10,040 nucleotides of DNA, taken from UHGV virus genome UHGV-0351092, one strand, 5' to 3'. The position numbers and the translations under genes are program-made. Below the pieces are notes generated by a model that did not search any database, was not told the origin of the DNA, and worked only from the letters and a program-made list of their open reading frames with translations. Positions 1,827-2,110 of the stretch are shown piece after piece; position 1 is the stretch's first letter; every line of letters begins with the position of its first letter. Source of the stretch: a virus.

Positions 1827-2110
1827 ACCTTAGGAAATCTTAGGGGCTGGTTGACACTTTCCGGCTTAAGACCTTAACAAATCTTAACATCGCAGGTTGA
1901 CACACTTGACTCTTTTTCGCGAAAAACCTTATCAAACCTTAGCATTTCTGAGCATGGCAACTTGACACTTTTCGCGATTTTTTCGGCTTTTTGACGTGGT
2001 AAATCTGGCGAAAGGCCAGTAATGGCGCGGCTTACAGCGAGGTTGACACTTTTTCGCGTTCAGAGTGTAAAGTGTCAACCTGGCAAGCTGCTCAACTTGA
2101 CACTTTTTGA
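1827..2110. repeat. intergenic array of TTGACAC-TTTT(CGCG) boxes and ACCTTAnnAAAyCTTA units, with a 12-bp perfect inverted repeat; putative protein-binding/regulatory or packaging-recognition region
   Basis: Direct TTGACAC copies begin at 1851, 1897, 1962, 2043 and 2097, with an inverted copy (gtgtcaa) at 2072-2078. Three copies carry the extended TTGACAC(T)TTTTCGCG form. Three ~20-bp ACCTTA..AAA.CTTA units at ~1827, ~1870 and ~1925 each precede a TTGACAC box. GGTTGACACTTT (2041-2052) and AAAGTGTCAACC (2069-2080) are exact reverse complements separated by 16 bp. Confidence 0.6.

Follow-up and report, generated by a model that had tools for sequence, protein, structure and literature searches.

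The question raised by this locus is what function is served by a dense set of repeats in a 293-bp non-coding segment of UHGV virus genome UHGV-0351092, from which a stretch of 10,040 bp (hereafter, the window) was analysed. The segment, referred to as the array, lies between a gene for a 175-aa protein with a helix-turn-helix (HTH) domain and a small open reading frame (ORF) of 59 aa, and the window is, by gene order, an E. coli phage satellite of the phage-inducible chromosomal island (PICI) type. The array is real, conserved and composite, and with a probability of about 0.5 we read it as an origin-type iteron array bound by the 175-aa protein as its predicted dedicated winged-helix partner. 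Three functions had been proposed in the initial annotation, namely a packaging recognition site, an operator for the downstream cargo and stacked promoters, and none of them is the best fit.

All six copies of TTGACAC in the window are located within 1851-2103 (1851, 1897, 1962, 2043 and 2097 on the plus strand, and 2072-2078 on the minus strand), compared with 1.39 per window expected from shuffled sequences. The conserved unit is the 10-mer TTGACACTTT, designated the A box, which with up to one mismatch occurs six times in the 293 bp, where about 0.017 copies are expected, and is absent from the rest of the window; the copy at 1906-1915, TTGACTCTTT, is the degenerate one of the six. The dense group of five direct boxes and one inverted box was thus correctly described at first sight, as were the three ACCTTA units (ACCTTA..A..CTTA, designated B units) and the perfect 12-bp inverted repeat, GGTTGACACTTT at 2041-2052 and AAAGTGTCAACC at 2069-2080, whose arms can be extended to 16 nt at 94%. 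The absence of coding capacity was also borne out, the region being crossed by two short overlapping ORFs of 48 aa and 94 aa that look spurious. The array does lie near both the gene formerly called TerS-like (terminase small subunit-like) and the cargo gene, but the 59-aa ORF that separates it from the latter had been overlooked. Likewise, the proposal of cooperative sites for the adjacent HTH protein agrees with boxes that travel with homologues of the 175-aa gene and with a second family of HTH genes, but it had missed an 18-bp core, AAGCCGCGCCATTACTGG, at 2016-2033. Read on the minus strand, which is the coding strand of all genes in 1-7930 and is called the gene sense below, the order of elements is A box, inverted A box, A box, core, and then a distal set consisting of an A box with B unit(s), A boxes with a B unit, and an A box with a B unit. 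The core is therefore flanked by three A boxes on the proximal side and by three or four on the distal side (Table 1). The GC content of the array is 0.44 overall and 0.33-0.37 in the lowest 30-nt windows; the core itself is GC-rich, as is the core in the centre of the origin of the E. coli satellite EcCICFT073.

It is this core that ties the array to replication origins. It is identical at 18 of 18 positions to an 18-mer at position 4187 of EcCICFT073 (L092), where it is situated between GGTAGAYA iterons inside the 289-bp gap 3′ of the primase gene, the segment to which the origin of this satellite, validated by experiment, has been mapped, and the chance expectation of such a match in 10 kb of both strands is about 3e-7 (2 x 10,040 / 4^18). 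The ori of PICIs has been placed immediately 3′ of the replication gene, with iterons surrounding an AT-rich region; at 44 °C, a plasmid with the replication gene and ori persisted, the rep mutant did not, and maintenance of the ori mutant dropped significantly (PMC6092414). When viral contigs were scanned with a degenerate core pattern, at least 120 contigs matched, and two groups of look-alikes in coding sequences (AAGCACCGCC.. and AAGCTTCGCC..) were set aside. Among the matches listed, the commonest 8-mer within 170 nt of the core was present at 99 core loci in a mean of 4.3 copies, compared with 2.05 copies at random positions. The flanking repeats are specific to the element: ATGTGCGG, ATGCGCGG, GGTAGAYA or CCGACACA in others, and AGTGTCAA in the family of the window. 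The largest group among these matches carries ATGTGCGG or ATGCGCGG repeats, four per side and all in the same orientation, within an initiator gene of a lambdoid immunity region, with a DnaB-like helicase gene next in order; the corresponding genes are annotated as "replication protein O" and "replicative DNA helicase" in CUS-3, JEP4, HF4s, Stx2a and Salmonella P22-like phages. In three other contigs (L125, L133 and L142) the core is located directly 3′ of a primase or helicase gene, and in L111 it lies 100 nt past a homologue of the AAA_25 replicative helicase gene of the window.

The core is thus common to origins with unrelated initiators, including O-type proteins, P4-type primases and AAA_25 helicases. 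That it is shared across initiators so different, the present HTH protein included, suggests a common step in origin firing, and as an origin sequence common to unrelated initiators it is a separate lead in its own right. No description was found in a literature search with 13 bases of the core. Further positions of the core are L113:4102, L111:4472, L125:3229 and L038 (approximately 5854). A match at 15 of 18 positions near the cos site of P4 falls within a GC hairpin after psu and was taken as chance. In a similarity search of phage DNA with 1541-2130, the only match was a 41-nt stretch covering the core and its flank (2001-2041), which resembles the early-left region of 933W-type Shiga toxin (Stx) phages at 88% (E 4e-3); no TTGACAC boxes occur near this stretch in the Stx phages. 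At L002:3001-3040 (4916-4955 of phage P13374) it lies 3′ of ORF12, beside an apparent promoter and a small terminated transcript.

Conservation of the array beside homologues of the 175-aa gene, which had been suggested as a check, was found in 55 of 59 loci from at least eight enterobacterial genera. In these loci the gene-sense order is a box, an inverted box, a third box in either orientation, the 18-mer, and then two or three direct boxes, each of which precedes a B unit (about GCTAAGnTTTGnTAAGGTTT); the lengths of the spacers vary across loci, and the orientation of the core is always that of the gene. The same box is present 3′ of the homologue in Escherichia ruysiae, Pantoea, Rouxiella, Raoultella, Buttiauxella, Serratia and Erwinia. 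Scanning viral contigs for the pattern returned 67 loci, the majority with a gene of the 175-aa type adjacent. At three loci cargo is inserted between the gene and the array, and in several relatives homology with the window stops just beyond the most distal box, where other cargo starts. Arrays of TTGACACTTT are also held by two AT-rich contigs, L035, in which they flank an AT-rich stretch, and L037; both are unrelated contigs that were picked up only through the pattern search, and they were rejected as members of the satellite family.

Dense arrays of the same box also occur directly 5′ of the genes of a second HTH family of about 190 aa, which has the N-terminus MSLMSVSQYAKHAGMSRQALY.W and shares with the 175-aa protein the helix motif SRQ..Y.W. 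The occurrence of two diverged SRQ-motif families beside the same 10-mer is the best available evidence, circumstantial as it is, that the HTH of the 175-aa protein may read the A box. The satellites of this second family (L091:14565-14856; L029, L052, L060, L077, L081 and L084) have nine or ten tightly packed TTGACACTTT boxes 5′ of the 190-aa HTH gene and only a degenerate core (CGCGCC..CTGG), and two paralogous genes with no assigned function (about 160-173 aa and 258-275 aa) precede the HTH gene. A switch of the Cox/Apl type in P2/186-like phages was considered for these arrays and rejected, as comparison of the loci and the annotated E. coli example, which is a PICI-like satellite with a small 3′ ORF ending in ..YQWKKPAPRR, place the shared module in a PICI-like satellite in this case too.

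The identity of the binder is further narrowed by the iterons beside the replicase genes, which vary with the replicase: next to AAA_25 they are CCTCACTTTT, next to a P4-family primase (L001) GGTAGAYA, next to DUF927 in the HUSEC2011 satellite (L023) ATATCCCGC, and next to another P4-type primase (L038) TGAACAGT/TGTTCACC. Whichever replicase type is present, neither the TTGACAC array nor the 175-aa gene changes, which argues for the 175-aa protein rather than the replicase as the predicted binder of the array. In the window, the AT-rich gap 3′ of the AAA_25 gene carries CCTCACTTTT iterons in both orientations, with seven copies of CCTCACYT or its reverse complement and additional degenerate ones, but not the 18-bp core, and it is probably the canonical origin of this satellite. 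Since each satellite has its own iterons beside its replicase, the array is to be regarded as a second origin-like module, not as the sole origin. The tail CACTTTT(T) is common to the A box and all AAA_25-type iterons (CCTCACTTTT, CCCCACTTTTT, GCGCACTTTTT and TTGACACTTTTT).

From these arrangements we infer a tentative scheme of who binds what, and that replication may start or be controlled at the array. Two sets of the 10-bp iteron (AAAGTGTCAA in gene sense) would flank the core in an origin-type element of a PICI-like satellite. The N-terminal winged helix of the 175-aa protein would read the A boxes and coat both flanks, and the resulting nucleoprotein complex would offer the core and the adjoining stretch of lower GC content to replication factors of the host, the satellite or a helper phage, the B units being bound by a second partner. 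The array would then serve as an additional origin, used by an initiator-like protein of its own, or else as a cis-acting site for replication comparable to P4 crr. A bolder and distinctly less probable version is that the 175-aa protein, as initiator, and the array, as origin, make up a self-contained cassette independent of the primase or helicase of the satellite. Such a cassette might provide a second, possibly helper-dependent replication route, in which a common replication factor belonging to the host or the helper would land on the core.

Several observations weigh against an origin-type array. The region at 5203-5667 (GC 0.32), 3′ of the AAA_25 gene, already is a canonical AT-rich iteron region, and the array is 3 kb away from the replicase gene, compared with a PICI ori immediately 3′ of rep (PMC6092414). 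Five relatives have the core both in the array and beside the replicase; the satellite is accordingly not obviously dependent on the array for replication, since in these relatives the replicase region has its own core, and the rule that each element has one core, either by the replicase or in the array, failed on the same five relatives. The core is GC-rich, with no clearly AT-rich unwinding element between the two sets of boxes, and origins without the core exist (P4 ori, P4 crr and the HUSEC2011 satellite). The 175-aa protein was not found in plasmid records, save for one weak match of 40 HTH residues in one plasmid, and it is therefore not seen as a stand-alone replicon. Finally, the 175-aa gene occupies the slot that in EcCICFT073 is held by rppA and its cos sites.

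Comparison with known systems shows both likeness and difference. Like the ori of EcCICFT073 (PMC6092414), the array has two sets of iterons in both orientations, the identical core between direct iterons, and a tandem repeat containing TAAGGT with a period of about 11 bp beside the core, and the two satellites share the order Icd, DUF4222, replicase, PerC, capsid-interference genes, HTH gene and small ..RLRR gene. However, the ori of EcCICFT073 lies directly 3′ of the primase gene, and its GGTAGAYA iterons travel with that type of primase, whereas the array of the window is 3 kb from the replicase, has other iterons, follows the 175-aa HTH protein and coexists with replicase-adjacent iterons. 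The O-gene origin of P22-like and Stx2a phages (CUS-3, JEP4, HF4s and others) also has iterons on both sides of the core, four plus four in one orientation in the phages, but it is located inside the coding sequence of its own initiator, the N-terminal domain of which is unrelated to the 175-aa protein, whereas the array is non-coding and lies 3′ of the gene. The closest analogy to the two modules of the window is P4, a satellite in which two iteron clusters, ori and crr, are several kb apart, one of them far from the end of the replicase gene. The P4 iteron TGTTCACC is bound by the alpha protein. Both P4 clusters share this one iteron, and neither contains the core, whereas the clusters of the window differ (TTGACACTTT versus CCTCACTTTT, with only CACTTTT in common), and the array, unlike crr, comes with an HTH gene of its own next to it. 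Should the array prove to be a second origin with a dedicated binder, replication of the satellite, and hence spread of its cargo, would be controlled beyond the textbook pri-rep-ori module.

The 175-aa protein belongs to a family that is limited to Enterobacterales and carries no annotation. Residues 1-41 are nearly invariant across genera, and identity drops to 35-60% in the remainder. The AlphaFold model is confident (pLDDT, the predicted local distance difference test score, 88.6) and places a winged HTH at residues 1-44 and an alpha/beta domain at 60-175, joined by a disordered linker (46-55). No sequence match was found in PDB, and tblastn against phages gave no match; Foldseek searches of PDB and BFVD matched the HTH alone. 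In the fold comparison the values were 7.2 for Pukovnik Xis, 6.7 for terminase small subunit 7lxs, 6.4 for lambda TerS 6hn7_B, 6.1 for BldC, 5.9 for RppC and 5.7 for P2 Cox; the fold belongs to the Xis/Cox/BldC/AlpA/MerR group of winged helices.

The alternative that survives best, although appreciably less probable than an origin-type array, is that the array is a pac-like or cosB-like packaging recognition site and that the 175-aa protein acts as the specificity factor of the satellite, in the manner of a small terminase subunit or of Rpp; the protein would bind the A boxes on either side of a central cleavage or assembly region and recruit the terminase of the helper. It is retained as the main rival because the 175-aa gene fills the slot that holds rppA and the cos sites in EcCICFT073. 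Both lambda-type cos sites of that satellite were located, cos1 just 5′ of a 144-aa Nu1-like HTH gene, which is taken as rppA (c1503 in PMC6739421), and cos2, inverted, just 3′ of the gene and ahead of the last gene of 93 aa. The succession of cos1, rppA, cos2 and the ..KPERLRR gene there corresponds to that of the 175-aa gene, the array and the ..KPDRLRR gene in the window; the array fills the slot of cos2, and the arrays of the second HTH family, being 5′ of the HTH gene, fill that of cos1. RppA with cos1/cos2 of EcCICFT073 (PMC6739421) and lambda Nu1 with cosB likewise combine a small Nu1-type winged-helix protein with DNA sites beside its gene, but the array has neither cosN nor cosQ, its centre is an origin core and not a nicking site, and only the HTH of the 175-aa protein aligns, the C-terminal domain being another one.

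The neighbouring genes lend plausibility to a role of the pac type. A scaffold/protease-like gene of 430 aa in phage Rac-SA53 recurs in the window as a split copy made up of the DUF2213 and 195-aa genes (54% identity), as is typical of modules that interfere with capsids and packaging; the split copy suggests remodelling of capsids and, as candidate helpers, Rac-SA53-like phages with terminases of headful-type families. The terminase genes of Rac-SA53 belong to the Terminase_2 and Terminase_6N families, which we take to be of headful type. In the pac sites of P1 and SPP1, too, boxes stand on either side of a central region; the ends of the metagenome contigs do not fall at the array (L026). 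On the other hand, the late region of this candidate helper carries no TTGACAC boxes, and a packaging role does not account for the origin-marking 18-mer in the middle of the array. The lambda cosB model drawn on in the initial annotation fails, since GGGCGGCGACCT, the lambda-type cosN, does not occur anywhere in the window at up to two mismatches in a search that found both cos sites of EcCICFT073, and the consensus of integration host factor (IHF), WATCARNNNNTTR, is absent from both strands of 1780-2150; a lambda-type cos site is rejected on these grounds. Searches with 1541-2130 and with 1590-1830 revealed no DNA similarity to phage packaging regions, the latter giving no phage match at all. 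As to the protein, its fold matches terminase domains no better than excisionases, its profile match to RppA covers only 29 HTH residues at 26% probability, and its C-terminal domain is not a terminase-like oligomerisation domain. Should the array be a pac site after all, E. coli PICIs that exploit non-lambda helpers would have their first defined packaging signal.

A transcriptional control region, in which the 175-aa protein or a related helper protein would bind the boxes, much as direct-repeat arrays are bound by Cox, Apl, Xis and BldC, and switch the small gene and the defence cargo or sense the helper, is improbable. Several proteins of the Xis/Cox/BldC/AlpA/MerR winged-helix group, to which the fold of the 175-aa protein belongs, bind tandem direct repeats cooperatively, and the array is directly 5′ of the 59-aa ORF and the variable cargo slot. 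However, neither strand has a recognisable promoter, an extent of 290 bp with six sites and a core is large for an operator, and the origin core is left unexplained. The cargo genes differ among relatives and may be inserted on either flank of the array or in the opposite strand (L007, L010 and L013), and a fixed regulatory link to the cargo, as implied by the operator first proposed, is unlikely given this variation in type and placement. Binding of an Xis-like excision directionality factor to the array on an attachment-site arm is very improbable. In lambda attP, the sites lie within about 150 bp of the crossover core. The distance from the island end to the array comprises the 180-bp 59-aa gene plus 425 bp in L001, and 1.6 to more than 2 kb of cargo in the window and the HUSEC2011 satellite, and this role is rejected because the crossover core lies too far away. 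Excision of the related Gram-negative PICI EcCIMP1 needs the integrase-proximal AlpA (PMC11773190); considered as a possible relative, EcCIMP1 carries PerC, AlpA and a primase and lacks a 175-aa gene. Stacked sigma-70 promoters can be dismissed as the least probable of all: TTGACA is indeed the -35 consensus, but a scan of both strands of 1500-2700 gave 0 pairs of -35 and -10 elements at 16-18 nt spacing (1.1 expected from shuffles), inspection by eye found a TAnnnT hexamer at 16-18 nt after none of the boxes, the direction of five of the six boxes leads back into the 3′ end of the 175-aa gene, away from the genes downstream, and the unit conserved across genera is the 10-mer TTGACACTTT and not the hexamer. 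A structured RNA is unlikely as well, because the spacing of the inverted boxes varies between genera; folding of the gene strand of the array gave z = -1.8, due to the inverted boxes, the array had no match in a search of the whole window against Rfam (E <= 1), and a terminator scan of 1500-2700 found none.

The positions of the array elements and the surrounding genes are listed in Table 1.

Table 1. Elements of the array and genes of the satellite, with their positions in the window
Feature	Position	Strand	Remark
GmrSD_N/DUF262 gene with Schlafen AlbA_2 domain (cargo)	2-1540	-	Open at left end of window
59-aa ORF	1640-1819	-	Separates array from cargo gene
Whole non-coding array, 293 bp	1820-2112	none	Between 175-aa HTH gene and 59-aa ORF
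B unit ACCTTAGGAAATCTTA	1827-1842	+	Overlaps ribosome-binding region of 59-aa ORF
A box 6, TTGACACTTT	1851-1860	+	Most distal
B unit ACCTTAACAAATCTTA	1871-1886	+	
A box 5, overlapping pair TTGACACAC / TTGACTCTTT	1897-1915	+	Exact 7-mer and 1-mismatch 10-mer
B units ACCTTATCAAACCTTAGCATTTCTGA (gene sense ..AGAAATGCTAAGGTTTGATAAGGT)	1926-1951	+	Tandem, period about 10-11 bp; always after an A box
A box 4, TTGACACTTT	1962-1971	+	First of distal set
18-bp core AAGCCGCGCCATTACTGG (box C)	2016-2033	-	
A box 3, TTGACACTTT	2043-2052	+	9 nt from core
A box 2, sole inverted copy	2069-2078	-	Forms arms of 12-bp palindrome with A box 3
A box 1, TTGACACTTT (AAAGTGTCAA in gene sense)	2097-2106	+	Begins 10 bases past last codon of 175-aa gene (numbering of cross-locus comparison)
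175-aa HTH gene	2113-2640	-	
DUF2213 gene	2647-3318	-	
195-aa gene	3383-3970	-	
PerC gene	4376-4663	-	
ProQ/FinO gene	4660-5202	-	
AT-rich gap, 465 bp	5203-5667	none	
AAA_25 RepA-like replicative helicase gene	5668-7080	-	
DUF4222 gene	7077-7367	-	

A relative 98% identical to the window, in E. coli PapRG-04-4, is an island within the yifB gene, in which the 59-aa gene comes last and the opposite end encodes a tyrosine integrase and an AlpA-like protein; the assignment to the Gram-negative PICI-type satellites follows from the gene order of this relative. The region 1600-2700 was matched in 169 of 5,426 complete E. coli genomes, chromosomally every time. The satellite family with the 175-aa gene and the array carries defence cargo directly by the array, in a slot that is variable: GmrSD-like in the window, a PARIS-like pair (AAA ATPase and DUF4435) in the O104:H4 outbreak-type HUSEC2011, and empty in PapRG-04-4. 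The AlbA_2 match in the cargo gene of the window is weak and under the Pfam cut-off.

Homologous to the last gene of EcCICFT073 (93 aa; E 1e-5) but shortened, the 59-aa ORF has in common with it the N-terminus and the C-terminal ..YxWxKPxRLRR, and it marks where the conserved core of the satellite ends. Small ORFs of this kind close the conserved part of three satellite families (1640-1819 in the window, L092:8374-8655 and L091:13684-13872), always directly after the gene in the HTH/Rpp slot; they start with ..TEAxxLxxIR.. and end in ..YxWxKPxRLRR or PAPRR, and their C-terminus matches two PHROGs with no assigned function. The split scaffold/protease-like copy (2647-3318 and 3383-3970) is without the long Glu/Ala/Lys-rich middle of the Rac-SA53 protein. 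Between the PerC gene and the next small ORF, a hairpin with the arms AAAGCCCGCA and TGCGGGCTTT lies in 4303-4372 on the minus strand; it is probably an intrinsic terminator or attenuator and gave weak, sub-threshold Rfam matches (ncr1175 and Thr leader). A 501-aa ORF at 7923-9428 on the minus strand looks spurious, and relatives are annotated at this place with short plus-strand genes (YlcI/YnfO family) and an Icd-like gene.

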